Shown: piece after piece, positions 23,354 to 45,838 of the stretch | How positions within the stretch are numbered: the first letter of the stretch is position 1 | Layout: each line of letters begins with the position of its first letter | Assembly: GCA_023920165.1 (NCBI GenBank) | Contig: CP089276.1 | Span: 3,472,001-3,536,000 of the forward strand | Source of the DNA: Curvularia clavata | Taxonomy: Eukaryota | DNA length: 64,000 nt | Reading direction: 5' to 3' | Notes under the pieces: model-generated | Seen by the model: only the letters and a program-made list of their open reading frames with translations | What the model was told of the DNA's origin: nothing | Database searches by the model: none | Made by a program: the position numbers and the translations under genes

Positions 23354-26300
23354 ATGACCGCAGCAAACCCTCCACCAGGCACCTTGCCGGTGGAGCACCT
23401 CAATGGATCCGATCCCTTTCTTGCTCTACCGCAAGATGCCCAGAGGCGCTACTCCGCCTTCGACAATTCCGAATTCTCCCTCTATGTCAACGGATCCCCT
23501 GCCCAGGCTAAGCGCGCCCTCGAAGCACACTTGGCCGAGACAACACGTCGCCTACAAGAGACATCGCAGCTAGGCAGCGCACTCGTCCAGCAGCGAAAGG
23601 AGCTCGAGGACAGGTTGCATGAAGTGGAACAGCAACAGGAGGAGAATGATATCGGGCAGGATCTGCGCCAGAAGCTGACCGAGCTGGAGAGGGAGTTCAA
23701 TGAGGTGGGAAGGGAGACGGCTCGTGTCTTCCTCCCCAAGTCTCGTGTTCCTAGCGGAGAGACTGACCCTGCGGGCGGTTCCGTTTACTCGAGTGAGGCC
23801 TTCCAATCGCCCACAAAAGTGAGCGTGCCGTCTCGGAAGCAGAAGAACCAAGCCCCTAGCCGTATCAACGACATTGCGCTAGCAACGGAAATCTCCACGT
23901 CTCTGCTGTCCCAACTCAAGGAGCTCCAGGCGGTCCTCCTGGAGAAAGACGAGGCCCTTAAGGCAGCCGATCTTGACAGGTCTCAGCTCGAAATCGAGGT
24001 CGAAGGCTTATCCCACCGTTTGCGGACTTTGGATGAGAGCGAGTCGCGGCTGAAAGACGTCAACTGGAGCCTGGAAACCCAAATCCGCGAGTCTGAATTG
24101 CAATCCAAGTCGGCAGCTGACAAGGAAAACCGCCTCAACCATGCCCTCAATCTCGCACGCACAGAGAGGACAAACTTGGAACGGGAATTAGAAGAATTGA
24201 AGCAGATGTACACCAAGCTCAACGACGATCACATCAACAAGGTCAAGCAGCATGAGACTGAGCTCGCTAGCCTTCGTCGCAATGTAGCCATGACCGAAAC
24301 CGAAAAGGGTGCCATGCAGCGCAAAGTGGAGGAACTCGCGGCCAAGAACCAGCAGCTGGCACAGGCTATCGCCTGGCGCGCAAGGTCTGAGGAGCGAGGC
24401 CGCTCTGAAGATTCGTCTCCGGATGACAGTTTCGTGGAAAGACACTCGGGAACCCCAGAGCACTCCCCTGCACCCTCACCAAGCAAGGCTACTCCTCGCC
24501 ACGGCATGCTCGAGACAGAGACACTGAAGCACTCCCTTCAGCACGCCCACCGTATGATCCAGCAACTCAAAAACAACATCCATCGCGAAAAGACCGAGAA
24601 AATCGAGCTGAAGCGAGTCCTGCAAGATACCCGTGATGAACTGGACACAGCCCGCGCTCAGGTTGCACCTGGCAGCGCCAGCAAGCGAAGGAAGAGTGAA
24701 AAGGATCTGTTCAAGAAACCTCCTCGACCAGATCGTCTTGGTGCCTTGCGTAGCGGCACACAGGAGATCATTGAGGATGATGAATGGGAAGAGGAGGAAG
24801 GTATGCCAAGTACTCCCAGTCGACAACCACAGCTTTCAATGTCTACTTCTCGAGTGTTCACTAGTGGAAACGCTTCTGCTGCCGAAACTAGCGGATACGA
24901 AGGATTCGAGACTGCCAACGAAACCTCGGATGCTGCTTTTGAGACTGCAAACGAACGTGATGGTATGGCAACCGAATCGGACGCTTTCCAGACGGGAGCA
25001 GAGACGCTCGATGGGGACAGCAGCGACCAGCTGACGGAGACTGAAGCTCGGCCTGTCAAGCTTAGTGCGCGTCGCAGTCGACCCTCGTTCACAAGCCGAG
25101 GCCGTGCCGCTTCCTACGAGAGTACAGCTTCCGCCTCTGGCGACGATTACAGCGAGACAGATCTGAGGACGCCATTGCAACACCAAGGTTCTCGTCTTCG
25201 GTTGAGGCCAAGCAGCTCTCGCAGATCAACGCCCAAGATTGGCGCAGGCTTGTTCGCTAGTACACCACCGGCGTCTAGGGATTCTCCTGCTAGCTACATG
25301 AGCAGTAGCAACGAGAACACACCTGCTCAGGGCAAGAGCCTGTTTGCAGAGTTGAACGATTTGAGCGACGGCGATAGTTCTGCCGATGGTACTGTCGAGG
25401 GTACACCAAGCCGACCCAGTATCATACACTCGCGTCAGTCGTCAACAGATGCATTCCGAAGGACCATAACTGCTCCACCCAGGCCGCTCATGGTAGACTC
25501 GGGTATGATGACTGAGCCGGATATCCCTGAGCACATCACAATATCTTCCATCTCTACTCAGGCTACTCAACCGCAGGCCGTCCGCATGCCCGCCTTGCAA
25601 ATGTCTTCACTACGATCACACGACACGAACCCACAGGCTCCACTCCGACAAGATCTTCAAGTGTCTTCGATTTCTGCGCACAACACAGAGCCTAAGCAAG
25701 CACTGCCACCGAGACTTGACCTCTCGAGCGTTTCTGCAAGCGAAACCAGTTCTCGTGCACCGCAGATGCCTCAGTTGGCTATGTCCTCCTTGTCGGCTCA
25801 CGGAACTGAGCCACAAGCTCCCTCTGTACCATTGTCAACTCTTTCTTCTCTGCATTCCCTAGACACCACGCCTCGTGCTGTCCCTGTCGCCCCGTTAGAT
25901 ATGTCATCTGTGGTTGCCCACACAACAGAGCCTCGACATGCTTCGCCACAACCTCTTGGTTTATCAGGCTTCTCGTCTCAGATCACAGAGCCCCGAAGGT
26001 CTACTCCACCGCCCCTTGTAATGTCGGATCTCACATCTCAGGGCACGGAGCCTCGGAGATCGACATCGCCATCTCTTGGACTTTCAAGCTTCTCGTCTCA
26101 GGGCACTGAACCTGTTGCGCCAAATGTCCATGAGCCAATTAACCCTTCTTTGGATGTTTCCTCTATCTCCCACCAGGCTACCGAGCCAAAGGATGTTGAG
26201 ACCCCAAAGATGTTGGCTCCAACACAGCTGTTGAGGTCCACTATCTCAACTGAGTCAATAAGGCCTGTAGAAAAGACTGAGTCTACCACTGATATCTCTA

Positions 26301-29008
26301 AGTCTGTATCAACTCCTGAAGAGGCCGTTTCGACCCGGTCGCTGCAGATGCATCAACCACAAGTCCTGCAGATTTCACAGGTTGCTGCTCACGCGACTGA
26401 GCCAAGGGATGAGGTGCGCAAACAGGCACCACTACACATGTCGGCCCTTGCATCTCATGAAATCGCGCCCAAGGATGCACTCCAAGCACCGCCTCCCACA
26501 TTGTCAACAACCTTGACCCAGGTTATTGAGCCACGAGTGCCGAGCCGCGAGAGACCTCAACTTTCTCAGCTCTCTTCGCACGTTGCAACTGCGCCTGTTG
26601 CACCACAACCACCCCGTATGCAACTGTCAAGCTTTTCAGTGCAGTCCACCGATCCAGTCGAGATGCCAAAGCCAGCTCCACAACAACTGTCGTCACTATC
26701 GTTCCAAGTGTCACAACCCAAGGAGCCGTTGCAACCAGCACCATCATCATTCTCTAATCTGTCGTCAAACGCAACAGAACCAATGGCGCCAAAGACCCCA
26801 GCTTTCATGGATCTCTCGCGCGTAGAATCTCAGACAACAGATCCTGTCCAACCAGCACAAGATGTGCCATCGCAACTTTCGTTGGTCAATGCAGTTCAGA
26901 CAGAACCCTTCCTGCCAAACGTTCCCCTGGGATCTGTGCTTGACGTTTCTGACGTACAAACCGTCCATGATGCCCAGCCTGAGTCGCCAACACTTCCGGC
27001 ATTCCTTCCAGCTCCTACAAGCCGGCCATCCACAGCAAACAAAGAAGGAAAGCCTGTCATGAGCTTCTCATCTGTGGCAACTCAAAACATTGAGCCATTG
27101 GCACCGTCAAGACCTGTGACCGCGCACAGAGACATCACACCCCTCTCAATATCAACCATCACTCAAACAGAGACGGTGGAACGCAACCAGCAACTGGTAC
27201 CCAAGATTAGCTACTCTGACGCCAGCCCAACCACAAGCAGGGATGCCTCGACTATCACTGCTCCTTCGTCAGAAGAGAAGCGAGACACACGTGTACCTCT
27301 TATGCCTATTAGCGCCAACACCCCTGGCAAGAGAAGTGCAACGCAAATGACTGACGGAGGCACTCAGACCATGGTGTCTGCCGAGCAAATCGACAAGTTG
27401 CTTCTTGCTCGAAGTCAGTTGTGGAGTAGCACAGCAGCTGTAGCTGGGTCAGACAAGGCTCTTCCTTTGCCCGGATCGCCAACAAAGCAAGTGCCTGATC
27501 CTCTGAGGACTCCAAGACGTCCCGGCAGCTCTTCAAGCGTGCGCTCCCGTATGGACACGCCTCCTCCGCTGCCACGAGACCACAAGGAAGTCATTGCTGC
27601 GGCATCCCTCAGGCCAATGTCTCCAGGATCCATGGGACCACCCTCGCTTCCTGCCTCAGCCTACAAGAAACGACCACAAACGCCAACCATCAAGACAAGC
27701 AATAACAATCTCACGCCTTTGACAGGCGGTACCACCCCACGTATGCGTCGCCCATCGCAGCGAAGCGGAGCGTCTTCGCCCATCAGCCGTAGGTCATCGC
27801 TGTCGTCATTCACATCGGAGATTGATCAGCGCTTCAACATCCCTGGAGGTCCATCCTTCGCTCCAGGCGGACTGGCTGCTGGTGCCACAGATCCACGCAT
27901 GATTCAGGCCATCACTCAAACTATGATTGGTGAGTACCTATGGAAGTACACTCGCAAGACTGGGCGTGAAGACATGTCTGAAAAACGTCATCGTCGCTTT
28001 TTCTGGATTCATCCCTACACGAGAACTCTGTACTGGAGTGATCGCGACCCTCAGAGTGCCGACAAATCAACACTGAAAGCCAAGAGTGTGGCTATCGAGT
28101 CTGTCCTGGAAGTCGATGATCCCAACCCTCTCCCTCCTGGACTGCATCAGAAGAGTTTACTTGTCATCACCCCCGGCCGCTCAATGAAGTTCACTGCCAC
28201 TACGGGTCAGAGACACGAGACCTGGTTTAACGCTCTGAACTATCTGTGCCAGCGCATAGAAGAAGGGGACGAAAAGACTTCCCCAGTGTCGGAGCAGAGG
28301 CCTGGAACCGATGAAATTCAAGATGAGTTCAACGGCGGATACCGAAGCTCCTCTCGTATGACAGGTCGGTCGAGAGCCTCAGTGGCATCATACGCTACCA
28401 GGCGCCCATCGTCTCGCGACACTACCCAGGTACCTACGCTCCGACAGTCGAACTACACTCAGCAACGTGCACTCTCGACTGAGCCGCCAGCTCATGGTTC
28501 GGTCACAAACAGATTCACCAGCATGCTTCGACCAAGTGCCACCAATATACGAGGATCCTTCTCAAGCCGTAGAAGCAGCAAGACTAGTGCACCGGAGACA
28601 CCGATGTATGAAGAACCTAGCGCCGCTCATATGGAGCTCAGCCGTGATATCCACGAGCACCTAGAGCGCGACGAGGACTTCATGCCCAACGTCCGAGCGT
28701 GCTGCGACGGTCAGTCACTTCCCTTCTATGTTAAGTATGATATTCGAGCTAACATCTACAAAGGCAAGCACGATGTTGGACATCTCCATTCACACTCGGT
28801 TAGAGGTCGACACATTAAGGCCTCTAGCTCACGCCCTTCGCTCTTTGGGTCAATGAGCTCACGTGCCCAGTCTCGAGCTGAGTCGCGTGCAGAATCTCGC
28901 ACAGAGTCTCGCACCGAGTCTCGCATTGAGTCACGCACTGAGATGCGCAATGAACAACTCCGCCACCAAACTGAGATGGAGGCAGCCAACTACTCAGCTG
29001 GTGCATAA
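23354..29008 (+). CDS. NUM1: Cortical nuclear migration protein Num1/ApsA (coiled coil, central repeats, C-terminal PH domain); in-frame intron 28710-28763
   Basis: Coiled coil with NNIHREKTEKIELKR. PH domain TDPRMIQAITQTMIGEYLWKYTRK...HRRFFWIHPYTRTLYWS. Splicing restores NVRACCDGKHDV. Confidence 0.92.
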   Translation: MTAANPPPGTLPVEHLNGSDPFLALPQDAQRRYSAFDNSEFSLYVNGSPAQAKRALEAHLAETTRRLQETSQLGSALVQQRKELEDRLHEVEQQQEENDIGQDLRQKLTELEREFNEVGRETARVFLPKSRVPSGETDPAGGSVYSSEAFQSPTKVSVPSRKQKNQAPSRINDIALATEISTSLLSQLKELQAVLLEKDEALKAADLDRSQLEIEVEGLSHRLRTLDESESRLKDVNWSLETQIRESELQSKSAADKENRLNHALNLARTERTNLERELEELKQMYTKLNDDHINKVKQHETELASLRRNVAMTETEKGAMQRKVEELAAKNQQLAQAIAWRARSEERGRSEDSSPDDSFVERHSGTPEHSPAPSPSKATPRHGMLETETLKHSLQHAHRMIQQLKNNIHREKTEKIELKRVLQDTRDELDTARAQVAPGSASKRRKSEKDLFKKPPRPDRLGALRSGTQEIIEDDEWEEEEGMPSTPSRQPQLSMSTSRVFTSGNASAAETSGYEGFETANETSDAAFETANERDGMATESDAFQTGAETLDGDSSDQLTETEARPVKLSARRSRPSFTSRGRAASYESTASASGDDYSETDLRTPLQHQGSRLRLRPSSSRRSTPKIGAGLFASTPPASRDSPASYMSSSNENTPAQGKSLFAELNDLSDGDSSADGTVEGTPSRPSIIHSRQSSTDAFRRTITAPPRPLMVDSGMMTEPDIPEHITISSISTQATQPQAVRMPALQMSSLRSHDTNPQAPLRQDLQVSSISAHNTEPKQALPPRLDLSSVSASETSSRAPQMPQLAMSSLSAHGTEPQAPSVPLSTLSSLHSLDTTPRAVPVAPLDMSSVVAHTTEPRHASPQPLGLSGFSSQITEPRRSTPPPLVMSDLTSQGTEPRRSTSPSLGLSSFSSQGTEPVAPNVHEPINPSLDVSSISHQATEPKDVETPKMLAPTQLLRSTISTESIRPVEKTESTTDISKSVSTPEEAVSTRSLQMHQPQVLQISQVAAHATEPRDEVRKQAPLHMSALASHEIAPKDALQAPPPTLSTTLTQVIEPRVPSRERPQLSQLSSHVATAPVAPQPPRMQLSSFSVQSTDPVEMPKPAPQQLSSLSFQVSQPKEPLQPAPSSFSNLSSNATEPMAPKTPAFMDLSRVESQTTDPVQPAQDVPSQLSLVNAVQTEPFLPNVPLGSVLDVSDVQTVHDAQPESPTLPAFLPAPTSRPSTANKEGKPVMSFSSVATQNIEPLAPSRPVTAHRDITPLSISTITQTETVERNQQLVPKISYSDASPTTSRDASTITAPSSEEKRDTRVPLMPISANTPGKRSATQMTDGGTQTMVSAEQIDKLLLARSQLWSSTAAVAGSDKALPLPGSPTKQVPDPLRTPRRPGSSSSVRSRMDTPPPLPRDHKEVIAAASLRPMSPGSMGPPSLPASAYKKRPQTPTIKTSNNNLTPLTGGTTPRMRRPSQRSGASSPISRRSSLSSFTSEIDQRFNIPGGPSFAPGGLAAGATDPRMIQAITQTMIGEYLWKYTRKTGREDMSEKRHRRFFWIHPYTRTLYWSDRDPQSADKSTLKAKSVAIESVLEVDDPNPLPPGLHQKSLLVITPGRSMKFTATTGQRHETWFNALNYLCQRIEEGDEKTSPVSEQRPGTDEIQDEFNGGYRSSSRMTGRSRASVASYATRRPSSRDTTQVPTLRQSNYTQQRALSTEPPAHGSVTNRFTSMLRPSATNIRGSFSSRRSSKTSAPETPMYEEPSAAHMELSRDIHEHLERDEDFMPNVRACCDGQSLPFYVKYDIRANIYKGKHDVGHLHSHSVRGRHIKASSSRPSLFGSMSSRAQSRAESRAESRTESRTESRIESRTEMRNEQLRHQTEMEAANYSAGA
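28859..28942 (+). repeat. Seven imperfect 12-bp tandem units encoding SRxE/Q in the Num1 C-terminus
   Basis: tcacgtgcccag tctcgagctgag tcgcgtgcagaa tctcgcacagag tctcgcaccgag tctcgcattgag tcacgcactgag. Confidence 0.9.
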
Positions 29009-30038
29009 GCTCCACTCACTCTACCCATAATCCTTACCCCCCCAAAAAAAACAATCTCACTTAGGTTTCCTTTGGCGACCTTGGACTAGTCCAATGATTT
29101 GACTGACATTCTTTATTTTCCTAGTATTTTGTATCACTCGCGGGAGTCGGTCCCTTTTTCCTATGTCTATCTCTGTCCGTTTTGCGGCTTTCGGATATTA
29201 CACTTCGATTTGGTTTCGCATCAAACAACAAATAAACTTCGGAAGCTCGCTGCAGGAGCCTGGAGCATGGCGTTCAGCGGCAAGACACTGCCTGTCTGAC
29301 GTGCACAGCGTGCTCGACTGTGGATGGAGCTGTACACTGAGACGACCTAACGCTTCTCGTTCGGACTAAGTTCCGACTTTGTCTTGTTTGTTGAGGGTTG
29401 CTTCAGTATCATTTGTAACTAGATCCTTCTCTCTCTTCACTCCGGAGTTGTCAACTTTTACATGTTTGATTCAGCAGCATATCGGAGTTGGATTATGTTT
29501 GTAGGTGGTGATAGAAGCACACTAACGGCGAATGGCTAGAGTGATAGGAGCCAATGAAGAAAGACGTAAATTGGACATGATTGTGCTGTTGCTCGTGACT
29601 CTGCAGAAGCCTCGAGAAACTTGGCCATGTGACGCGACGACGGGTAATGGGACCAAAGTGGGTGGTTCATGCAGGTCTTGTCCGGGGGCAAAATGCCAAG
29701 AATCTGCGTCACCGCTAAACCGTAGTGCTAGACCGAACTTTCGCTCCTGGCCAGACGCGAGGCCCATTTGCCTGCTCCCTCCTTTAACAACAACAAGACT
29801 AATCGCACACGCCGTTTCCTTGTCCCACCTTCGTTTCAGCAACTGCCGGCAGCTACCTGTATACCTATAATAGACTTTCGAGCCACTGCAACGAACGCCT
29901 AATAACCCACACCTGCGCAAACACGCCAAAGCGCGACCACGCACACGACACGACTAGACCTCCCCAGCAAATCCGCGCACCGACGCCGACGACAAACTCA
30001 CCTTTGGCCACCAGCGATTTCAATACACATCCGCAACC

Positions 30039-30794
30039 ATGGCGCGTAACTCGGAAAAGGCGCATTCGATGCTGTTCCGCTTCCGCGCTGCGCAGGCCGC
30101 TGAGGCAGGAATCATCGACATCTCTCGCACGCGCCGCCCCAAGCTAATCACATCGGTCAACTCTATTCCCGTGTGCGAAAAATGGCGTGGACAAGTCCTT
30201 AAGGAAATCTCGCGCAAAGTCACAAAGATCCAGGACGAGGCGCTCTCAGATTACCAGATTCGCGATCTCAACGATGAGATCAACAAGCTTATGAGGGAAA
30301 AGCACATGTGGGAGAGCCAGATCAGGACACTAGGAGGACCTAATTACATGCGAGGCGGGCGGGTACTGGATGAAGAAGGGCGCGAAGTGCCAGGCGGCGG
30401 CAAAGGGTACCGGTATTTTGGGCGAGCAAAAGAGTTGCCAGGTGTCAAGGAGCTTTTTGAACGACAAAGTCGTCCAGAGGATGACATGGACAAGGGACGC
30501 GAGAAGAGAAGCGAGCTGAGACAAAAGGTGGATGCTGGTTACTATGGCTACAACCTGGACGAAGAAGACGGCACGCTGCTAGCATACGAGAAAGCCAAGG
30601 AACGGGAGGCCTGGGACAACTTCATGTTACTGGGTGACGATCTGAACGAGAAACCGAGCAAAGTACAAAAAGAGTGGGTTGAGCTACCCGGTGACGCGGG
30701 TGATGGTGTACGATGGCGAGTCCCCACCCTTGAGGAGGTGAACAATGAGCTCGTCGAACGCAGGAGGAGGAAGCTACTCGAGAAATTGGGATGA
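30039..30794 (+). CDS. ISY1: Pre-mRNA splicing factor Isy1 (NTC component)
   Basis: MARNSEKAHSMLFRF, CEKWRGQVLKEISRKV, YQIRDLNDEINKL, GYRYFGRAKELPGVKELF. Confidence 0.96.
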   Translation: MARNSEKAHSMLFRFRAAQAAEAGIIDISRTRRPKLITSVNSIPVCEKWRGQVLKEISRKVTKIQDEALSDYQIRDLNDEINKLMREKHMWESQIRTLGGPNYMRGGRVLDEEGREVPGGGKGYRYFGRAKELPGVKELFERQSRPEDDMDKGREKRSELRQKVDAGYYGYNLDEEDGTLLAYEKAKEREAWDNFMLLGDDLNEKPSKVQKEWVELPGDAGDGVRWRVPTLEEVNNELVERRRRKLLEKLG

Positions 30795-31450
30795 TTAGAA
30801 CGATGACAGCATTCGATGCACGCGCTCCTCCATTTTAGTGGAGTCGTGGGAAGGGGGAGGTTCCGAAACTGTACAACAGCAGATTGCAGCATTTGTCTTT
30901 TTGTTTTGTTTCGTTTTCTGGAACCACATTCTTTTCTTGTTCTTCGAGGCCAGAAGAAGTCGAGGAGAAGAAAAAAAGTATCAAAGACCGATATACCCCT
31001 TTTATGGCCGAACAAAACTCGGCTATTACACACCAAAAGCTCATAGTATGTATATCAGTATGTATCATTGATGGACGAGCAAGAGCTAGTCCAGAGCTAG
31101 AGCGTATGAATTAAGAAGTTTTATAGAAGCAGATGAAGGGTGGCTTTTGTGACATGAAGTAGAGTGTTTTCGAGAGAAGAGATGGCTTCTTGTTTTCATG
31201 CTGGCTACGGGATGATGTGGAAGGGCTTGGGTATCTCATTTATTTCCTGTGGAGTTCTTCTTTACAGCAAAGCCACTCTGTTACTTGCGCATTACTCTCT
31301 ACTGTTTCCCGACGAACAGCATGTTCCTTCAGCATATGGCGTCGATCCCTGCGCACCTTCTTTTCCCTTCTCTGGCTCTTGCTTACACCACCCACTTGAG
31401 TATACCGTCCTAGAGTAATGATAATTGCCGTCTCTTTACTACCCCGCAAC

Positions 31451-32162
31451 TCAAGTCGTGAACAGGGTATCTTCTTCTCTGAGATACTCGCCGATATCTG
31501 CTTGTCTGAACGTGACAATGCCCGTAGGATCCAATTTTCTCGCATCAGCTGTCGACCTTGCACTTACGCCGAAGCCCTGTACTTCGTTAGCACCAAGCTT
31601 CCACAACCTACATTCATAGAGAATCATCGCTCCAGAATCAAAGCGGTGGGCTTCCCCAAACTTACCAATGGCGTGTCATTCATACTTAGCACCACTACAC
31701 CCTGGTGCTCGGGACAATCCTCACTCCACCTTCCCACATGCGCCTTGAGCACGTTTCCCCCGTACAAGAACGGCATCTCGCCATTCTGCTTCACCCACAC
31801 CTTGTATCTTGCGTGCGGCGCAATGACGCTCAAGGCAGTAATGTGGAGCCTGAACTTGCCCGTCTTTGTGAATTTTCCAAGGCAGATGCCGAGAGAGAGG
31901 AGGTTGTCGCGCGCAACGCTGGTCGCGAGGTTGGCGATGGATTCGCGGACGTAGTAGACTCGTGAGCCCTAGAATGAATTGTAAGTAAAGGAAATGGACG
32001 ATTTGGCTTTTGGAAGGAGAGTGGTGAAGTTACCTGTACGCGGAAGACGTTGCGGTCGGAGCCGCCAGCTGGGTCGGCAATCAGGTTTGTTATGCCTTTG
32101 CCGCAGTAGGAAGCAAGTTTTTCGAAGAGGGTTCTGGTCTCGGGCTCGGTGAGGGGCCTCAT
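31451..32162 (-). CDS. NIP7: 60S ribosome biogenesis protein Nip7; exons 32162-32034, 31968-31666, 31576-31451
   Basis: [34 protein letters not shown]-domain [15 protein letters not shown]-terminal [17 protein letters not shown]. Two canonical introns. Confidence 0.95.
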
Positions 32163-32416
32163 TTTTGCGTTTGTATACTCTTGAGTTTTTATGGTGGTTT
32201 GGATCTGGGGGAGGGGAGCTGGGCTTCTGGGCGCAAGTTCGCAAAGCCGAGAGAGAGGGATCTGCTTTGCCCAAAAAAATGTGGAGCGCAAAGCGGGCTA
32301 GTCTCCGCCGCGGCCAAAATTTCCTGAGCGCGCGTTTTGCGTACACTCTGCGATACCACCAGTGCAGCGGGACATTCTGGCCCTGCCTTTTTTTCTATTT
32401 CGCATACAATCGCATT

Positions 32417-34465
32417 ATGTCTCGAGTTCCGGCCGCCAAGCGACGAAGACTGTCGCCGCCAGAGGATGGAGCGCCTGATAACGCAGCGACAACGGTCGAT
32501 CACAAGGCGACGTTCTTGAAGAATGCCGCGAAATGGGATCTCGAGCAGGACTACGAAACTCGGCCGCGCAAACTGAAGAAGCAAAAGGAAAACAAGAAAC
32601 TGCCTGTTAGGACAATAGAGGGTTGGGTGGCGCCGCAGCCTACTGCGGAGGATGTTAAAGAGGAAGACGACTCGGACAGCTTTCTAGGCACGGGCAGCGA
32701 GGATGAGGGAGACGAGGATGTTGAGGAGGAAGAAGAGGTGGAGGAAAAGAAGCCAAAGATACCTGCGCGACAGCAAATACTGGAAGCCAAAGAAGAGCTC
32801 GCTCGGATAGCAAGTCTGATCAATGAGGACCCAGAAGAACACATTGGAGCATTGAAGACACTACAAGCGCTTGCGGAATCGGAGAACTATACAGTCAAGA
32901 AATTGGCATTGGCAACGCAGGCCTCCATCTTCAAGGACGTTATCCCCGGTTACAGGATACGACCGCTGTCAGAAGAAAAAATGCAGGAGAAAATCTCCAA
33001 GGAAGTTAAGAAGCTGCGACTGTTTGAGCAAAAGCTGGTGTCGGGTTATGAGACATATGTCAAGCACCTGGGTAAACTGGCGAAGTCGAGCGGTTCAGAC
33101 AAAGAGCAGGTTGCGAGCCTGGCTACGGTTGCTGTGAGCTGCGCATGCAACCTGCTGAATTCAGTCCCGCACTTCAACTTCCGCAGCGAGCTTCTTAAGA
33201 TCCTGGTTGGCAAGCTAAGCACACGAAAAGTGGATGCCGATTTTGTGCGGTGTAGGGAGGCCATGGAGACGCTGTTTCAGAACGACGAGGACGGCAATGC
33301 TTCATTAGAGGCTGTTACCATGTTGACCAAGATGATGAAAAGTCGAAACTACCACTTTGATGAGAGTGTGCTGAACACATTTTTACATCTTCGGTTGCTG
33401 TCCGAGTTTGCACAAAAGGCTTCGTATCATTCTGTTGATAAGGCAGAGGAACCAACAATCAATGGGAAGAAGCAGAAGCAGAAGCGCGAGTTTAGGACGA
33501 AGAGGCTGCGAAAAGAGCTCAAAGAGAAAAAGGCAATTGAGAAAGAGTTCAAGGAGGCTGATGCGGCGGTTAGCCACGAGGAGCGTGACCGGATGCAGGC
33601 AGAGACACTCAAGATGGTGTTCGTGGCATACTTTAGGATCCTGAAGGCGCGTTCAGCGAAGCTCATGGGTGCTGTGTTGGAAGGTCTGGCGCGATATGCG
33701 CACTTGATCAACCAGGACTTCTTTGGTGATATCCTCGAAGCACTACGGGACATTATCGCAACCGCCGAACTCACAGCCGCTGCGGCCGCCATGGACGACG
33801 ATGACGCTTCGGATGAAGATGACGACGAGGCACCCGAGCGCAACCTCACGCGCGAGTCTCTCCTCTGCGTCATCACAGCCTTTGCCCTTCTCGAAGGCCA
33901 AGAAGGCGCGAAAACAGCATCAGCGCTTAAACTCGACCTCAGCTACTTCATCACCCATCTCTACCGCACATTACACCCTGTAGCGCTGAACCCAGATATC
34001 GAACTGAGCTCCAAGTCCCTCCACCTCGCCGACCCCAATGGCGGAATCTCACACGCCGATACAGCCAAAATCAACGTCCAAACCACCATTGTCCTTTTAA
34101 TCCGCTCCCTTTCTTCTGTCCTTCTCCCCGCCACCTCAATCCGCGCCGTGCCCCCTCTCCGTGTCGCTGCTTTCGCAAAGCAACTCATGACCGTCTCCAT
34201 GCATCTGCCTGAAAAGTCTTGCACGGCTATGCTTGGCCTGCTGAACCGCATCACCAAGACGCACGGCAAAAAGGTGGCTCCGCTATGGAATACAGAGGAG
34301 AGGAGAGGCGATGGTGTGTTCGATCCTCTAAAGCCGGAAATTGAGGGTAGTAATCCTTTTGCGGGGACGGTCTGGGAAGGAGAGATTCTGAGGAGGCATT
34401 TTGCGCCAAGTGTGAGGGAAGCGGTGAAGGGGGTGGAGAAGAACGTGCTCGAGGCGAGCAAGTAG
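32417..34465 (+). CDS. NOC3: Nucleolar complex protein 3 (CBF/Mak21 family)
   Basis: AKEELARIAS...EDPEE, IFKDVIPGYRIRPL, PHFNFR, VLEGLARYAHLINQDFFGD. First ATG at 32417; the ORF track's TTG extension is not used. Confidence 0.94.
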   Translation: MSRVPAAKRRRLSPPEDGAPDNAATTVDHKATFLKNAAKWDLEQDYETRPRKLKKQKENKKLPVRTIEGWVAPQPTAEDVKEEDDSDSFLGTGSEDEGDEDVEEEEEVEEKKPKIPARQQILEAKEELARIASLINEDPEEHIGALKTLQALAESENYTVKKLALATQASIFKDVIPGYRIRPLSEEKMQEKISKEVKKLRLFEQKLVSGYETYVKHLGKLAKSSGSDKEQVASLATVAVSCACNLLNSVPHFNFRSELLKILVGKLSTRKVDADFVRCREAMETLFQNDEDGNASLEAVTMLTKMMKSRNYHFDESVLNTFLHLRLLSEFAQKASYHSVDKAEEPTINGKKQKQKREFRTKRLRKELKEKKAIEKEFKEADAAVSHEERDRMQAETLKMVFVAYFRILKARSAKLMGAVLEGLARYAHLINQDFFGDILEALRDIIATAELTAAAAAMDDDDASDEDDDEAPERNLTRESLLCVITAFALLEGQEGAKTASALKLDLSYFITHLYRTLHPVALNPDIELSSKSLHLADPNGGISHADTAKINVQTTIVLLIRSLSSVLLPATSIRAVPPLRVAAFAKQLMTVSMHLPEKSCTAMLGLLNRITKTHGKKVAPLWNTEERRGDGVFDPLKPEIEGSNPFAGTVWEGEILRRHFAPSVREAVKGVEKNVLEASK

Positions 34466-37235
34466 GAGAACGGGTGATGTTGGTGTGGGGGTTGTAGGGA
34501 GCAGAGAGAGTGGGAATGGGGTTGGGGTTGGGGCTGGTAGAACGAGGGTAAAGCCGACTTTCTAGAACTCAGATGCGGATATTAGATGACAATGTGTTAT
34601 GAATAGAAGAAGATGCTCACATTGGTTCTATCTACAAAGTTGAAGCCACTCTCGTCTTTTTCACATCCCGTCATTCCACACAGGTGCTCATGATATCGGA
34701 AGCGTGGAGTCAAACACTTCTTCCCTCCTCGCTGAATCAACGAAGCCAAACGAACAACCTGATGAACAGCCAAAAAGACGCATTCACAATACCAAATCTC
34801 CAATCTCCGCGTGGGAAACAGTAACCCATTCATTTCTCACTCAGATCGATGTCTCAACCTACCCTTTCCCCATCCCCGCGCTTCTCCTAACCATGTGTTT
34901 CTACCGCGAGATCCACTACTGCATCTGCACCATGTAAATCCAATCATACCCCCTGTTGTCATTTCCCTGCAGATAACTTTCGTACATGCTCAACAAGATT
35001 AAGTTTATCGCCTCGTGCTCCCGCTCTTCCCGGAACCTTCGTTATCTTACCCGTCTTGTTCCACAACGGAAAGACATAAGATTGGAGTTTAAAATGCTGA
35101 TCGAGTCTTCTGGGTTACGAGTAGCGTGTGTCGGTATCTGATTATAGGCAAGGAGTTTATACAAGGGTATGACGGAGGCTGTGAGTGGTGGGATTGTCCT
35201 GGATCTCAGTGCGAGGTTTCTTCTATGCTGTGTCTGGACGGATTAAAAACACTGTTGTTCAGCCCTGGTGATTGTCCATGTTATATGGCCGGTATGGAGT
35301 TGGGTGAGAAGCGTCTTATTATGATTTGGAGCGTAGCGGTTGCGAGTCTGGGCAGTACAGTTGAAATGTCTCCATAGCTTATTTTTACCGGTTATTTCGG
35401 CATTCTGGACTGATTTTGGAAATTATGCACTTTGTCATTCCGTCCAGAGTATATACTTTTAGGCGTCTTTAACATGCCAACCTAAATTCTTCCTGCTTTG
35501 TTGCGGACAAAATGGCGCACTCTTGCTTGATCGAACCCGGTAAGAACCAGGTGTGTTTGAAGATATCTTCTGATTTTGCCCATGAAACATTTTCTTCATC
35601 GTGAGATATGTTGTCTTTCGATACTGTTGTGACAGAAAGTGACCTGTTCGCCGATTTAATATCGTAGATGGCGCTTTGTCCAGCTAGTAGTAGTAGCCAT
35701 GCCAATTGAAATAAACCCCTTCTCTTGACGATGGGTTTAAGTTCCAACATCTGATCTGGAGTTCGCGTGCTAAGAGACGTGGAATATGGCCGCCATTTGG
35801 CTTGTGATGTCATGGATTCTGCTGACTGAGAAAATATCTTGTGTGATGTTTGATGTCTGTAAATGATTCATGGTAATAGATCAATACGGCTTTGCCACTA
35901 AGTGATTCTATCGAAAAGAGTCATTAAGGCACGTTAGACAGCTTTTTGGTTCTTGAATGCCAAGCAGTGTTCGTTTGCAGTGAACAATCAAACAACCAAA
36001 CCATATGGATCTCATCCACCAGTCGAATAGCACCGTATATATGAAAATAATAAATCTCCGAACCCGAGACTGAACAATGTCATGTATATTTCTTAGAGCC
36101 CAGCAATTCTGTATCTCTGATTCGAGGCGATCTCATATCTAATAGCGATCTACAAATCCGGTCGAGTAAAAGGGCCGAGACAAGGAAACGCATGCGGCAC
36201 GGGCTATGATCGCCCTAAATTGGTTTCCTTTGATATTGCTCGCATAGGCAAAAAGATTTGTGGGGTTCCACTGATAGTAATGGCTCCGGGATAAATCCTG
36301 GGTTGTCAGCGGGAATGGTATAGCTGAAACAAGTCTTTCCGCACTATGCTCCGGTAATTCAACATGGCTGACAACTACGTCAAACGTATACAGTACATTC
36401 AGTGCAGCGATCGCTATACTTGGTAACCGCCAAGTACATACGGTCAGTTTCGAAACCCAATTACAGATCCTTTGTCATGCTGGCAGCTCAAGAATCGATT
36501 GTTTCTACCTCTCGTTTACTACTTTTTTTTTCATGCGCTTAATTGTATAAGTCTTGGATGAAACGCTACGGCGCATTGAAACAGGCTAAGGAGTTACTTT
36601 CTTCCGTTTGCACGGTGGTAGTACTTGAGGTGGCAACGTCCCGTGCGAGATGGTCTCGTATCACATGGCGTCGTGTCTGCGCCAGAAGACTGTAGGGATG
36701 CGCCCATAAACTTTCTTCGCGCGGTCCTTAGTCTTTCCAACTCACAAGACATTGGATGTAGCATTGACGGCCTTTTATACGTCGTTTTGCAGTAATAACT
36801 TTTTCCACGGAGTTCTAGTCACTATGTTCAGGGACCTTATCTTACCCTAAAAACTGCCGGCGGCACACACATTAGCCTAGTACATTAGTCAAGTTGCTTG
36901 TTTCTCTATTTCCGAGCCTGATCAGCTTAAGGAGTTTCCGGCTATGTGCACGGGAGACTTTGTGGTCCCCGTATCAGCGAGTCGTTCCTACTATATTCTA
37001 CATAGTGCATATGTACATACTCATGCGTACAGGCGTATATTATTTGACATGATCTGAGTGCTAAAATCTTGGCCTTCGGCGCTTATTTTTCGGATCTACT
37101 TCTCATGTCACGGCAGTTTGAATGTTGTAATGATGTGCTCTTGGGGTTTGGTATATAAGGATGGCTTTTGCGCCACCGAGGATGAAATAGACCAAATCGC
37201 GTGATCTGTCCCTAGGGCCGATTCCTGAGAAAGAA

Positions 37236-38924
37236 ATGGTGGCACTGGATTTTAGAGCAGTATATGCTCTCTTTCCCTTACTTTCGTTTCTTCATGTCTT
37301 GGTGTCTGCAGATGCGATCAACGACCTGGAGGCCAAGGGCCGACCTGCCCTGTATGCTGCGCTGGCAAATTCCACAACTTGCACCAAGGAAAAATTGCAG
37401 GTACGCCGGGAATGGTACGTTCTTTGCTTCTGTTTTTAACCTTGCGGTCTCTGCTTCTTTCCGGAGACTAACAGGATATCAAGGGGCGACCTGCCTGTTA
37501 GCGACAAACTCGCATACATTGCCGCAGTGAAATGCCTTATTAATAACAGACCATCCCAATATGATCGCAACCAGTACCCAGGTGCCAGATCCCGTTTTGA
37601 CGATTTCATTGTCGTTCACATGAAACAATCACAGTATATTCACGGCACTGGAAGTTTTCTCACTTGGCACCGCTACTTCACCGCTGCGTATGAACATGCG
37701 TTGAGAAAAGAATGTCACTACAATGGCACGCAACCGTACTGGCATTGGGGACGCTGGGCCGAGAGCCCACAGACGAGTCCGCTTTTCGATGGCAGCCCTA
37801 CGAGCATCGGTGGCCAGGGAGAGCATGTGCCGCATAATAGTACTCTCAACATAACAGGCGAAGGTGGCGGCTGTATTGCCAGTGGACCATTTAAGGACAT
37901 GAAGGTTAATCTTGGGTAAGTACCACCACATTCCATTTACCACCTAGAATATCACTTGGGTTATATGTATTCCAAACAGCTATTCTTCTATCAAGCTACG
38001 TTACTTGCCTTGCCTCACTAGGTGGATTCCCCAGCAACAATAGTACCGTAGTGGTTTGGCACTACGACTAGTACTGGGTTGCTCGCTAGGGGAGCGTCTT
38101 TCGGCCGTAGAACGACATACCCTTGATTCGATCCGAAGACAGACGTTGGGCAATGGAGGAACTGGCGAGCCGATGGCTTGATTAAAAAAATCAGCACCTT
38201 GAGAAACCGAAGTCTGATTAATCGAACACTGATTTGTTGCCCAATGTCAAAGAATTGCCCCCTATATGGCTCTTCCCTTTCTTTTTTTGTCTGGCGGGCT
38301 TGCACTATCCCAGCAAACTTTTTTGGAATGACAAACGAGCTGACGTATGTCACGCAGACCCGTCTCAATCACGCAGACCCCAGCCCCGGCACGGAACCCT
38401 CGCCCAGACGGATTTGGCTACAATCCTCGTTGTGTCAAGCGCGATATCACCAATATCCTCACTATGCGCTACGCAACAACTGACATGATTTATTCTCTCA
38501 TGACGAATTGTATGGATATCGGGTCTTTCCAAACCAAGATGCAGGGTCCAGAGGGTGTACATGGCGCAGGCCATTTTACCATCGCTGGAGATCCGGGAGG
38601 CGACTTTTACACCTCGCCCGGTGGTATGTCGAGTCCTTATAGCTATCATCGTTTAAGTATCAGCTGACAGATTGTGACACAGACGTGGGTTTCTGGTTTC
38701 ACCACTCAATGATAGACCGTGTGTATACAGGTTGGCAGGGCCTTGACTTTGCGCATAGGCAGCAAGTTATTGCGGGTGTGACGAGAATGAATGACCCAAA
38801 CAGCACCCTGTCGACTCTAGATGATATCATTGATCTGGAAGCGGTCAATATAGAAGGCAAGGCGTACAAGATCAGGGAGCTGGTCAGTACTGTCCAGGGG
38901 CCCTTTTGCTATACGTATGAGTGA
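37236..38924 (+). CDS. Secreted tyrosinase-like di-copper protein; exons 37236-37414, 37484-37915, 38358-38623, 38683-38924
   Basis: Signal peptide, RREW, CuA (VVH...IHGTGSFLTWHR), QPYWHW, YNPRCVKRD, CuB (GVHGAGH...SPGDVGFWFHHSMIDR). The three introns preserve frame. Confidence 0.92.
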
Positions 38925-38980
38925 AACAAGCGTATTTAGCATTGGTTGCGAGACCAATCATTCCAAAACAATCACTTTTA

Positions 38981-39800
38981 CTGGGAAAACACGTAATATT
39001 AGGCATGGTGGTCACAGAAGTCAAGAAAATGTCGCGAACAGTTTGGAGAAAGTAATTTATTGATTCTCGGTCCTCAGATTAGCTCTCCTGCTGTCCTCAG
39101 AAGGAACCTCAATGCCCCTTATTGATCAGTCTTTCGACCTCTCAACAGGCAGCAATCGGGTTCCTCAACTCGACTTTGGCTTTAATGCCCCAACAGGGAC
39201 ATCATCACTGGACCTTTTCTTGCAAAAATCAGAGTCCCACCTACCTGAGCACCAACTCGCAACCAGCTCGTACAGATACTACACCTACTGCACGGCCCCC
39301 CACACTTCCCATGCCTAAAAGGCAAGGGCGCTCAGATTGAAAACTACAATTAGGGTGTCATGAGCGAACATCGTCCTCCAAGCCTCGGGGCAAGGTAGCA
39401 CGGCGCTTCACCGAGAATACTTGTCCTCACCGCGGTGGACGAAATGGCCAGAGCGGTTACGCGAGGGCGAACCCGGTGTTTGCGAAATCACCCGTGACCT
39501 GTCGCTGTGCAATGACAGGTAAGGTGATATGGCAGCATCTAGTATGATGGCGCACTCCCTCCGCTTTCCGTTCTGTTGTCATGCAGTGAGACGCCGGGGG
39601 TGATTAGTCCTCGGCATCTCCTTGTGACGAAGGTTTGTCGTTCATTGGGATCTAACATGTCAGCTGTCCTTCAAAGGATAATAATAATAAGAAAAGCAAA
39701 ACTGGAAAAGCAAGACAGAAAGTAACGCCGGTATAGGGATAGGGGAAACCTACTCGCAACTCGGGTATTGTAGGCGGGTGTGAAGTGGTGAGAGAGAGTT
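38981..39800 (-). ncRNA. Putative spliced non-coding snoRNA host transcript; introns 39753-39652 and about 39244-38981; ends uncertain
   Basis: Intron 1 GTAGGT...pyrimidine tract...GCTGAC...TTAG. Intron 2 CAG|GTAGGT...CCTAAT...TTTTCCCAG. Longest complete ATG ORF seen in the middle exon is 41 aa. Confidence 0.6.
39069..39214 (-). ncRNA. Box C/D snoRNA (146 nt), target not identified
   Basis: Terminal stem GGTCC/GGACC flanks box C GTGATGA (39208-39202) and box D CTGA (39077-39074). Candidate D' TTGA and C' TGAGGA flank a long internal hairpin (GAGGAACC/GGTTCCTT, TGTTGA/TCAATA, GGTC-GAAA-GACT). Confidence 0.78.
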
Positions 39801-42753: not shown

Positions 42754-43770
42754 CTATTTCTTTCCAAACGACTTCTGTCTCTGTGCATACTCTCTGACAA
42801 TGACGCTGCAGTTGACTTCTTGGCACAATCTCTTTCGCCTATCGGGACTCAGCTTAGTTGCAAATTCCAGACCACTTGCCCTCTCCACGACCTCAATTGG
42901 CACTTCAAAGTCTGTCAACGGCTTGTGGTTTGGAATGACTGCATTTGGCAGCACAAACGCTCCCAACGCAACTTTGCCGCCCTGCTTCCCGTCTTCAGCA
43001 AAGATGACTTTATAGAAGTGGGTAGGTACAGCAACGTTGGGTGGTGAACCAATGACTTCGTAGGAGACACGCCATTTGCCGTCGGCGTCCCGCTTGGGAA
43101 GATATAGTGGACCGGTTACAATGCGCACGGAGGGGTAGTTATGTGTGAGTCGGCGGCAGAAGTCTTCAAAATGGGCCCAGTAATCGCGGTTGAAGCCGTC
43201 GCCCACCTGTGGGCACATATTGCTCAAGGCGAAGGTGTCGTCCATGGCCTCTTGGCTCCACTTTGCGTCTGCAGCGGGCACTTGGTGGCCTCTGTCGTAG
43301 CCACTGCGGAAATAGTCCTTGAGCTTTGCGCGAAACATCTCAGGTATAGTGAGATCCTCAACGAAGACGCTGTGCTTCCGATCCGCATTGTTGTTCGCTA
43401 GCGATTCTGGGGTTATGTGTTCGGCAACCCATGCTGGGTTTCGCGTCCGTCGGTCGTAGGACGATGTGAGAGAGGCGGCAGGGCGAAGATCATTGACAGG
43501 CCCGGGAAATCCATATTGGAAGATACCACTGGGGTCTACAAGCGCTCTTTGGGCGACAGCGGTAGGTGAGAATGCGGGGACCGCGGGGACTGGGGGAACT
43601 GGGACGGCTGGTGCTGTTCGGGCGGATCCAGTCACGGTTGTGGTTGTCCTCGTTGTGACAGCTGGCGGAGGTTGAAAGGTATCCTTCTTGGTCGAGTATA
43701 GTGCTGCGGTTACTGCAGCTCCGGCTGCTGCGCCGCCTGCACCGATCAAGGCGAATGTGAGTTTCGACAT
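42754..43770 (-). CDS. NUC1: Mitochondrial nuclease (endonuclease G family)
   Basis: YGFPGP, SGYDRGHQVPAAD, LSNMCPQVG.GFNRDYW, VPTHFYKV. Confidence 0.95.
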   Translation of the reverse strand: MSKLTFALIGAGGAAAGAAVTAALYSTKKDTFQPPPAVTTRTTTTVTGSARTAPAVPVPPVPAVPAFSPTAVAQRALVDPSGIFQYGFPGPVNDLRPAASLTSSYDRRTRNPAWVAEHITPESLANNNADRKHSVFVEDLTIPEMFRAKLKDYFRSGYDRGHQVPAADAKWSQEAMDDTFALSNMCPQVGDGFNRDYWAHFEDFCRRLTHNYPSVRIVTGPLYLPKRDADGKWRVSYEVIGSPPNVAVPTHFYKVIFAEDGKQGGKVALGAFVLPNAVIPNHKPLTDFEVPIEVVERASGLEFATKLSPDRRKRLCQEVNCSVIVREYAQRQKSFGKK

Positions 43771-44182
43771 GGCTGCGCTTCTATCCTCTAAGGTACGGGT
43801 CGCACTGAGTTGAAGTGGGCGCAAAGGCCTCTTATGAGCAAAAGGGTGCCCCCACTGTCCGGCGTCCTGTCCGGCGCGTGAGAAGTGTCTCAGACGCGTC
43901 TACCCGTGTCCGTATGGTTTGCTGGCGGCTGCTGCTATCCAGGTGGTCATCTGCGTTTTCTCAAAGGAGGGTTCAACCGATACCGTATACGCACTAGCGC
44001 CGACAACTCGATGCGGCTGCCAACACTTTCAGCATGACGAAAAATCATCCACCACAGCGCTCTCTCATTTCATAGAATTCCGGGCGGTTTTTCTTTCTGT
44101 TCTTCAGTTTTCGTTTCTTGTATGGCCATAACATCGTAGACCTGGCGCACGTTTTCACGCTGTGCGACTCAATATCACCACC

Positions 44183-45838
44183 ATGCCTTCGTGGATATCG
44201 CGGGCCACCGAGTCCCACAATGCACAGCTTGTGGCGACTGCTGCTGTCTCAGGCTTTGTAGTTGGCAGTGCTATCCTCGGGTATCAAAAGGCTAGACGTA
44301 TGACGAGAGTAGCAGACCTGAAAGCGTCTATCCCCGATCTCAGTGACGACCACCGTCCGTCAAGAGTAAGTCCCGACCTGACGCTGGTTGACTTTTGTCA
44401 TGACATCCCTTCGCTTCCGGACCCAGAAACATTCTGACACAAGATAGTTAACGGAGTATGGCGCCGCTTCCAATGTATTTGCTCCAAGTAAAGAAGACGA
44501 ACGCAGCATGGCACTAGCTGCACGAGCGAGAAAAGGCGATTATGACGACGGTAAGACGTCATTATCTTGAAAAAGAAACCCCCGTTGCATTGAGTTCTCA
44601 CAAGACGATTAGATCTTATCCTCGAGCAATTGGCAAGAAACCGAGTCTTTCTCACAGACGAGGGACTTGCTAAGTTGCGGGGCGCTTTTGTGATTGTAGT
44701 CGGCTGTGGTGGAGTCGGATCACATGCAACAGCAGCTCTTGCCAGATCAGGATGCTCTAAACTTCGCCTTATAGATTTTGACCAAGTTACTTTGTCATCG
44801 CTTAATCGACACGCAGTAGCAACTCTGGCAGATGTCGGAACGCCAAAGGTACACTGCCTCCGCAAGCGACTCGAACAAATTACACCATGGACCCACTTCG
44901 AATGCCGAAATGAACTATTCAGCGAGCAAACTGCGGCTGCCCAATTGTCACCCTTGAATGGCCAGCAACCGGATTTTGTGATAGATGCCATTGACAACAT
45001 CGACAGTAAAGTTGCCCTTTTGGCCTATTGCTACATGAACAACATCAAGGTCATCTCTTCCATGGGTGCAGGTTGCAAATCTGATCCCACTAGAATCTTC
45101 ATTGGCGATATTTCAGCCAGTACAGATGACCCTCTATCAAAGTCTACAAGACGAAAGCTGCGATTGAAAGGTGTCAAGGATGGAATACCTGTCGTTTACT
45201 CGACCGAGAGGCCTGGCCCTGGAAAGGCTGAGCTTCAGCCTCTTTCAGAAGAAGAATTTGCAAAAGGCAATGTCGGAGAGCTAGGGGTCCTTGCAGACTT
45301 CCGGGTACGAATCTTACCAGTTCTGGGTACTATGCCCGCAATCTTTGGTTTGGCTGTTGCCAACCACGTTATACTCTCCATATCTGGCTATCCACAAGAA
45401 TACCTGCCATCCAAATCTCGGGATAAGATGTATGACGGCATTCTAGGTGCTCTCCAAGGTGCCGAAGAACGCTTGGCCCGTGCGCTATTCAGCGAAGATC
45501 CTCTCGGCCTCAAGATTCCCATCACACAGGACGATGTAGGCTATTTGGTAGAAGAAGTGTACAATGGACGAAGCATAATCAGCGGCCTGTCCACACGACT
45601 TATATTGACAAGGTGGAAGAAGCCAACCGAGAACTTTGTTGATGAAAGCACACCCGGACAGAAGAACAGTCATTTGAAGATGAAAGATTTGGTTCTCATG
45701 ACAAAGGAGGAGGCGGCCAAGCACGAGAAGGAGATACTGAAGGGCGAAAAGAGCTTCGAAGACGTCTACACTGCTGAGACGATCGAGCGTGTGAACAAGC
45801 GAATGGCCGAGGAAGAGCGCTTTGAGCGCTTCCGGTAA
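44183..45838 (+). CDS. tRNA threonylcarbamoyladenosine dehydratase (TCD1/TCD2-like, ThiF/E1 fold); exons 44183-44365, 44448-44550, 44613-45838
   Basis: N-terminal hydrophobic anchor, EQLARNRVFL, VVGCGGVGS, IDFDQVTLSSLNRH, DAIDNIDSK, SSMGAGCKSDPTR, FRVRILPVLGTMP. Confidence 0.92.

Follow-up and report, generated by a model that had tools for sequence, protein, structure and literature searches.

A tyrosinase intron of Curvularia clavata probably enlarged by a piece of a dispersed non-coding repeat

Introner-like elements (ILEs), families of which were first described in Dothideomycete fungi (available text of PMC4457414), are characterized in the available text of PMC3609843 and PMC4457414 as whole spliceosomal introns that carry canonical signals, are roughly twice as long as ordinary introns, have a low folding energy and sit at newly gained positions. 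A sequence-only reading of a 64,000-nt stretch of the Curvularia clavata genome (contig CP089276.1 of assembly GCA_023920165.1, positions 3,472,001 to 3,536,000; this whole stretch is the window, and all coordinates below refer to it) had singled out a 442-nt intron of a tyrosinase gene (intron 2, 37916-38357, plus strand), which was said to fold into four consecutive stem-loop domains inside a closing stem, and had proposed that it was an introner-like mobile intron, an undescribed intronic non-coding RNA or a splicing-regulatory switch. The analysis presented here indicates that intron 2 is probably an ancestral short spliceosomal intron that was enlarged in the Curvularia lineage by a piece of a dispersed non-coding repeat. 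So read, the event is an ordinary one, a repeat within an old intron, with neither a new kind of RNA nor a self-copying intron.

Introners have also been screened for systematically by comparing all annotated introns with one another and retaining families of at least four members in unrelated genes (Gozashti et al. 2025, PMC12130899, from the text available). Within the 12 of 14 supplementary files of that study that were searched, C. clavata GCA_023920165.1 is entered with 0 introner families (supplementary file 7), as are C. kusanoi and the two Bipolaris maydis assemblies shown there, and Curvularia and Bipolaris are given (file 12) as genera from which an introner of Pyrenophora, Lasiodiplodia and Alternaria is absent.

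A dispersed repeat within an intron of shared position

Intron 2 interrupts, in phase 2, the invariant L-G-P motif (at G204) of the host gene, a four-exon tyrosinase of C. clavata on the plus strand (37236-38924), and is bounded by exon 2 (37484-37915) and exon 3 (38358-38623). Its signals are a GTAAGT donor at 37916-21, a GCTGAC branch site at 38339-44 and a CAG acceptor at 38355-57. When joined by script, the segments 37236-37414, 37484-37915, 38358-38623 and 38683-38924 reproduced letter for letter the 372-aa "uncharacterized protein yc1106_04909 [Curvularia clavata]" (P0001), to which the translation of exon 2 (37485-37913) is 100% identical and which matched the Pfam family Tyrosinase (PF00264) with an E value of 6.3e-52 and 177.5 bits, against a cut-off of 22.6. 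In 24 aligned orthologues, hand-picked from the 120 listed, L203-G204-P205 is invariant and the alignment is gap-free over the junction; because the orthologues are contiguous there, no exon is hidden within the 442 nt. Judged from homology and from the database annotation, the intron and its boundaries are genuine. The sequence-only reading had set this length against a usual 50-135 nt; the difference stands against the 69 and 59 nt of the other two introns in the same gene, and the figure for most introns was compared only with these two and with the 63 and 69 nt of introns in relatives.

To measure how often the intron sequence recurs, contigs of four public runs were aligned to 37484-38623 at a likeness of at least 80%. 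In run X1, which may be the source of the window itself, the depth stayed level at 88.9-91.5 across both exons and the outer intron, and rose within the intron core to 867 (38016-53), 1764 (38054-91), 701 (38092-129) and 177 (38130-67). Run X3, which carries another organism label and belongs to another study, displayed the same profile, with a depth that rose from 117.9 to 951, 1985, 813 and 234 over the same bins. The depth ratio at the best bin was about 20 in X1 and about 17 in X3, and the aligned pieces numbered 19 and 17, respectively; since the summed depth of contigs does not strictly count copies, the estimate of about 17-20 copies is approximate. In both runs, the bins 37484-37977 and 38168-38623 were at single-copy depth. 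All but two of the X1 pieces (17 of 19) came from elsewhere, the remaining two being the locus's own contigs, broken inside the core. The 8 of these 19 pieces that were listed included the termini of two long single-copy contigs (44,320 and 13,118 nt), as well as short shared pieces of 46-96 nt, some of them at about twice the single-copy depth. The rise in core depth, together with the matching contig pieces, shows that the middle of the intron belongs to a dispersed repeat family whose core is well preserved.

The multi-copy core of this repeat, at least 80% alike in other contigs, spans approximately 38009-38167. A weaker but recognizable likeness to other copies, compared by eye in the loose contig ends listed, gives a minimum extent of approximately 37999-38193. 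The outer parts of intron 2, about 90 nt on the 5' side with the donor and about 190 nt on the 3' side with the branch site and acceptor, are single-copy. Inside the 64-kb window no second copy of the intron was found by BLASTN (best stray matches at E 0.97), and an exact 20-mer of the core had 0 matches in viral, metagenome and prokaryote contig collections.

Runs under three organism labels (A, B and F) contain the filled intron in almost the same form, which argues that it is fixed and not a private insertion. Among the isolates, X3 and X14 have a 9-nt tandem duplication (ATACCCTTG) after 38116, and the A-run at 38182 is one A shorter in X3, X12 and X14; the exons flanking intron 2 are otherwise identical among the isolates with this length polymorphism. 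Run X14 was considered as an RNA run and rejected as such: its contigs cross the boundary of intron 2 with exon 3, and that of exon 3 with intron 3, without splicing, and their total is close to the length of the genome, as in low-coverage DNA. The missing coverage of exon 2 in X14 was given no weight, and none of the four runs aligned contained a spliced joint.

The age of the intron position was assessed in metagenome contigs, which were searched with the orthologue alignment; at least 593 pattern matches and 521 relatives were obtained, the best 80 were retained, and all 80 were compared with P0001 by tblastn. Two of these best 80 of 521 relatives, L002 and L065, carry an intron at the identical site and phase, after the GG of the same glycine codon. 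The intron of L002 measures 63 nt (AATCTTGG/GTACGC...CTAAT...GATAG/TCC), and that of L065 measures 69 nt (CTCGG/GTAAGA...GCTGAC...CAG/TCC). The best named matches of L002 are proteins of Neocucurbitaria and Paraphoma (P0017 and P0018), and it is accordingly taken for a Pleosporales fungus; L065, of which the best named match is a Glonium protein (P0040), is by the same reasoning another Dothideomycete. The rest of the 80 loci are uninterrupted through NLGP, many of them being short intronless contigs, probably transcripts, or more distant family members. As to the presence of the intron in orthologous tyrosinases, a check put forward by the sequence-only reading, the position and phase recur in two relatives, and the long insert is found in neither.

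Two further observations concern the same region. An intron six codons upstream, after GPFK, is present in nine of the best 80 relatives (L010, L023, L024, L025, L029, L039, L044, L064 and L065), and this position is distinct from that of intron 2 because L065 has both; such a pair of positions, separated by 18-20 nt within a single conserved motif, is of the type debated in terms of parallel gain versus sliding. Separately, a contig of a relative in X12 (27 differences in 140 nt) aligns 6 nt beyond exon 2, and would fit a donor at the same site in a closer relative; this weak hint was not used as evidence.

The simplest reading of the comparison is that the position of intron 2 was inherited within the Dothideomycetes at a usual size of 60-70 nt, and that the C. 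clavata version is longer by about 375 nt. A copy or fragment of the repeat would have entered a short ancestral intron (63-69 nt in other Dothideomycetes) and added that length at a kind of site, scarce in a compact fungal gene, that could take some 200-375 extra nt without harm. Splicing would still proceed through the signals in the intron's own unique ends, GTAAGT, GCTGAC and CAG. The insert's palindromes (the domains D2 and probably D4 described below), as the sole parts of the fold beyond chance, would fold upon themselves in the transcript, and the folded insert would not hinder splicing or may slightly help it. The inserted DNA would accordingly be a neutral passenger, with no demonstrated role.

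Several points weigh against this account. The short-intron relatives L002 and L065 are only about 50-55% identical in protein, and parallel gains of ILEs at or near the sites of regular introns are reported for other fungi in the available text of Collemare et al. (PMC4457414), so that the shared position is strong evidence of inheritance and not proof of it. No terminal inverted repeats (TIRs), ends of the long terminal repeat (LTR) type or convincing target-site duplication (TSD) were found within intron 2, and because the termini were not found, the insertion is deduced from the length difference and the repeat and not from a pair of empty and filled sites. Only about 195 of the approximately 375 extra nt are repeat by the comparisons above, and depth, as stated, is not a strict count of copies. 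Finally, the possible sense bias of D4 (z -4.4 versus -2.05) is not predicted by a purely DNA-level explanation.

Class of the repeat

The repeat would belong among elements like miniature inverted-repeat transposable elements (MITEs), among elements like short interspersed nuclear elements (SINEs), or among fragments of longer transposons. Like a MITE it is short, non-coding and multi-copy, as the contig copies and the lack of coding homology attest; no TA-flanked TIR pair was found, however, and the sole TIR candidate with a TSD is weak (9/14, AT). Of the tRNA-related head with RNA polymerase III boxes that would mark a tRNA-derived SINE, there are an A-box-like 11-mer with one mismatch at 38044-54 and a B-box-like motif in loose ends of other copies. 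Of the 3' tail and variable-length TSD of such a SINE, there is one 6-nt direct repeat, TATATG, which flanks 37968-38262, and about 3.6 such repeats are expected by chance. Among ends inside the intron, searches for TIR plus TSD, long TSD, TG..CA plus TSD, TA plus TIR and Helitron-like ends returned nothing beyond chance, and a search of the intron for a solo LTR (TG...CA with a target duplication of 4-6 bp) returned 0 candidates. Rfam (4227 families, both strands, 37000-39500) gave 0 matches at E <= 1, tRNA and small nucleolar RNAs (snoRNAs) included, and no tRNA was found by ARAGORN. An 81-aa minus-strand frame of the repeat had no homologue in the searched length range of 44-142 aa. A match of protein P0121 to a 116-aa frame of the repeat (E 2e-5) was rejected as spurious, P0121 being a protein of six 75-aa tandem repeats with 25% identity per unit; its weak SWIM match adds nothing.

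That the insert is the truncated terminal part of a longer autonomous transposon, which would differ from the account above only in the class of the insert, is unlikely, although one contig speaks for it. In X14, a contig of 1,827 nt with a mean depth of 95.9, about 25 times that of the tyrosinase pieces (about 3.8), carries a copy of the repeat at its very end (11 differences over 38009-38135) and continues for about 1.7 kb beyond it; this contig could be a longer, strain-specifically amplified element. For the related Cochliobolus heterostrophus, the available text of PMC4112212 reports Gypsy, Copia, long interspersed nuclear elements, Tc1/mariner with MITEs and many solo LTRs, the Tc1/mariner elements measuring 1.3-3.9 kb. 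The depth of the X14 contig, however, is the contig mean only; moreover, the same core variant reaches only about 2-3.4 times the single-copy depth in X1, another X1 copy lies in the 44-kb single-copy contig, and the intron contains neither TA-flanked inverted repeats nor TG..CA ends.

A bolder proposal, for which the chances appear quite slim, is that the repeat represents an undescribed, structured, non-autonomous family of Curvularia with a conserved palindromic core, possibly with boxes like those of RNA polymerase III (Pol III) genes, and with a preference for introns or transcribed regions. If this were true, the family would exemplify a low-copy, early or failing stage in the passage from transposon to introner in a Pleosporales fungus, and would have been missed by published screens since fewer than four copies would lie in annotated introns.

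Predicted fold of intron 2 and its conservation among repeat copies

All of the stems named in the sequence-only reading were recovered at their positions, and all belong to the minimum-energy fold of the plus strand. Domain D1 is an 8-bp stem, CCACCTAG/CTAGGTGG, at 37940-47/38018-25 (domain 37940-38025). D2 is a 68-nt imperfect palindrome that forms a nested hairpin on either strand (38027-38094). D3 pairs GTCTT(T)CGG with CCGAAGAC (38096-38140), and D4 is a 12-bp stem, GACGTTGGGCAA/TTGCCCAATGTC, at 38142-53/38237-48 around two small hairpins (domain 38142-38248). The four domains are enclosed by the 7-bp closing stem CATTCCA/TGGAATG (37929-35/38324-30). Pairing probabilities were 0.85-1.0 over the four domains (0.85-1.0 for D2 and 1.0 for D4) and 0.48 for the closing stem.

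The stability of these domains was compared with 300 dinucleotide-preserving shuffles per region, and that of the whole intron with 100. D2 (z -4.33 sense, -4.58 antisense) and D4 (-4.40 and -2.05) were more stable than chance, values that are somewhat flattered because the limits of D1-D4 were set to match the stems, whereas D1 (-1.24 and -0.96) and D3 (-0.33 and -0.18) were within chance. Taken as one piece, D1-D4 gave z -2.69 sense and -1.03 antisense. The single-copy 5' part of the intron (37916-37998) gave +0.52 and +0.93, and the single-copy 3' part (38249-38357) gave +0.21 and -1.25. The whole intron reached only z -1.87 sense, with 6 of 100 shuffles equal to it, and -0.80 antisense. 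Folding beyond that of shuffles therefore holds for D2 and D4 but not for the intron as a whole, D1, D3 or the closing stem. A similar division applies to the supposed preference for the sense strand, which is seen in D4 and in D1-D4 jointly but not in D2; both strands of D2 fold equally well, which makes it a strand-symmetric, DNA-level palindrome.

The closing stem had been credited with bringing the donor next to the branch site. The stem is present, but the ensemble-average path from the donor to the branch adenosine was 24.3 steps, versus 25.3 +/- 5.2 steps in 100 shuffles with the intron ends kept, and in 45 of the 100 it was as short or shorter. Since the shuffles were equally close, this closure is what any sequence of such length does in silico; folded RNAs generally have close ends. 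The closing stem was therefore rejected as an aid to splicing, donor and branch being equally near in shuffles.

Other copies of the repeat, as seen in the variant rows and loose ends listed, inform on the domains individually. Common variants among the copies occur at 38026 and 38095, which are the single-nucleotide spacers, at 38058, a position in the loop of D2 that is A in the majority of copies, and at 38097, 38100, 38114 and 38126. At 38100, the majority (947 of a depth of 1039 in X1) have G, which mispairs with A38136, while at least one copy retains A, and one subfamily of copies has no 3' arm of D3 at all. D3 is thus not a conserved helix, being mispaired at 38100 in most copies and without its 3' arm in one subfamily. 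In the loose ends, the 3' arm of D1 differs in two other copies, and the 5' arm of D4 lies within sequence common to other copies. The D2 hairpin is the best-conserved stretch among the copies.

It was also considered whether the folded core is a functional RNA, either an intron-hosted small RNA gene, for instance one belonging to a Pol III-transcribed or snoRNA-like family, or a structure by which splicing of the tyrosinase transcript is adjusted. In its favour, D2 and D4 greatly exceed shuffles in stability, D4 folds better on the sense strand, and the sole common variant inside the well-conserved D2 lies in its loop. In addition, TACCGTAGTGG at 38044-54 is an 11-mer with one mismatch to the Pol III A-box, a B-box-like GTTCGATTC lies downstream in the loose ends of other copies, and a run of seven T is found at 38282-88; these putative matches to the box consensus were found post hoc. 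Against this, the Rfam and ARAGORN searches were blank, the orthologous introns of 63-69 nt lack the insert, which argues against a conserved gene-specific role, D3 is mispaired in most copies, and the closure of donor and branch is equal to that of shuffles, so that a functional RNA here is highly improbable and neither the intronic non-coding RNA nor the splicing-regulatory switch of the sequence-only reading was borne out. On the evidence of D2 and D4, the palindromes of an inserted repeat can be enough to give a long fungal intron a striking fold in silico.

The host gene, its surroundings and comparison with introners

The remaining parts of the tyrosinase gene follow from the same spliced coding sequence, which is that of P0001. 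Exon 1 begins with the ATG at 37236 and extends to 37414. It is followed by intron 1 (37415-37483; 69 nt, phase 2, GTACGT..CTAAC..AAG), the position of which, at residues 60/61, is also split in loci L024, L025, L039 and L065. Intron 3 (38624-38682; 59 nt, phase 1, GTATGT..GCTGAC..CAG) has a position, at residues 292/293, that is also split in locus L060, and exon 4 with the stop codon occupies 38683-38924. A repeat search revealed a 12-nt exact direct repeat on the plus strand, TCACGCAGACCC, at 38350-61 and 38369-80, the copies being 19 nt apart. The acceptor in use lies inside the first copy, and the second, in exon 3, carries a decoy CAG 19 nt downstream and out of frame. The CAG at 38374-76 was rejected as the true acceptor, because splicing there would displace the frame by 19 nt and lose the conserved stretch NPR.DG.GYNPRC. 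The direct repeat may have been left by a small duplication at the acceptor, or it may provide a site for unproductive alternative splicing. With regard to a nested intron (stwintron), inspection of intron 2 by eye only revealed no good internal donor.

After the C. clavata entry itself, the best protein matches are from Pleosporales, at no more than 68% identity; the protein of Bipolaris victoriae, despite the close relationship of that genus, reaches 65%. This copy of tyrosinase seems, from these identities, to be fast-evolving or without a close orthologue in the database. The flanking genes at 23351-34465 and 42754-45838 are of a housekeeping kind, encoding a Mcp5/Num1-type PH-domain protein, the splicing factor Isy1, NOC3, a non-specific endonuclease and a ThiF-family enzyme. 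The tyrosinase stands alone between them, with stretches of about 1.3 kb and about 1.7 kb without long open reading frames on its two sides, and no obvious biosynthetic cluster was found among its neighbours within the window.

As it stands, the enlarged intron amounts to a small annotation point, which adds a repeat family possibly missing from libraries and an intron-length polymorphism among isolates. The analysis also offers a worked example of how to tell an intron with a mobile element inside it from one that is itself the mobile element, and should introns prove to be favoured by the repeat family, the family would serve as a useful low-copy example of how introners begin. The published screen described at the outset suggests, as far as its supplementary entries go, that annotated introns hold no more than a few copies of the repeat.

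The DNA-transposon introners, exemplified by the 157-bp palindromic TIR family of Pyrenophora tritici-repentis (file 8 of PMC12130899, among the files searched), share with intron 2 a Pleosporales host and a short palindromic element associated with an intron, a likeness by description only. Such elements (Gozashti et al. 2022 and 2025) create the intron on insertion, whereas the C. clavata intron would have existed beforehand.

The resemblance to the ILEs of Dothideomycetes (PMC3609843 and PMC4457414, from the text available) is broader and includes the fungal class in which the first families were found, a multi-copy sequence in the intron, extra length (442 versus 59-69 nt), stable predicted hairpins (z about -4.4 for D2 and D4, and -1.87 for the whole intron) and canonical signals. 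Since ILEs are also known at or near the positions of regular introns elsewhere (PMC4457414, available text), it was weighed whether intron 2 is itself an ILE or its decayed remnant, that is, a mobile intron copied into this site of which the core retains a residual family likeness. This is very unlikely. The repeated unit of an ILE is the whole intron, splice sites included, whereas here it is an internal segment only (about 38009-38167), and the first 90 or so and last 190 or so nt, with donor, branch site and acceptor, are single-copy at a likeness of at least 80%. ILEs reach up to hundreds of copies, far more than the approximately 17-20 of this core; they are about twice the length of regular introns (PMC3609843, available text), and intron 2 is six to seven times the ordinary length. 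ILEs also occupy newly gained positions, whereas this site is common to L002 and L065, with introns of 63 and 69 nt in the same phase, and the published screen enters 0 introner families for C. clavata (PMC12130899, files searched). Of the introner-like mobile intron first proposed, what survives is multi-copy and presumably mobile DNA inside the intron.

An old intron enlarged by a repeat, the account favoured here, finds its closest counterparts in insertions of transposons or repeats into existing introns, the non-autonomous ones including MITEs, SINEs and solo fragments. Such insertions are not known to be common in the very short introns of filamentous ascomycetes. Intron 2 differs from these cases in having no identifiable TIRs, tail or target-site duplication, and it resembles them in containing a member of a non-coding dispersed family, in the greater length of the intron, in inverted repeats that fold, and in the use of the splice signals of the host.

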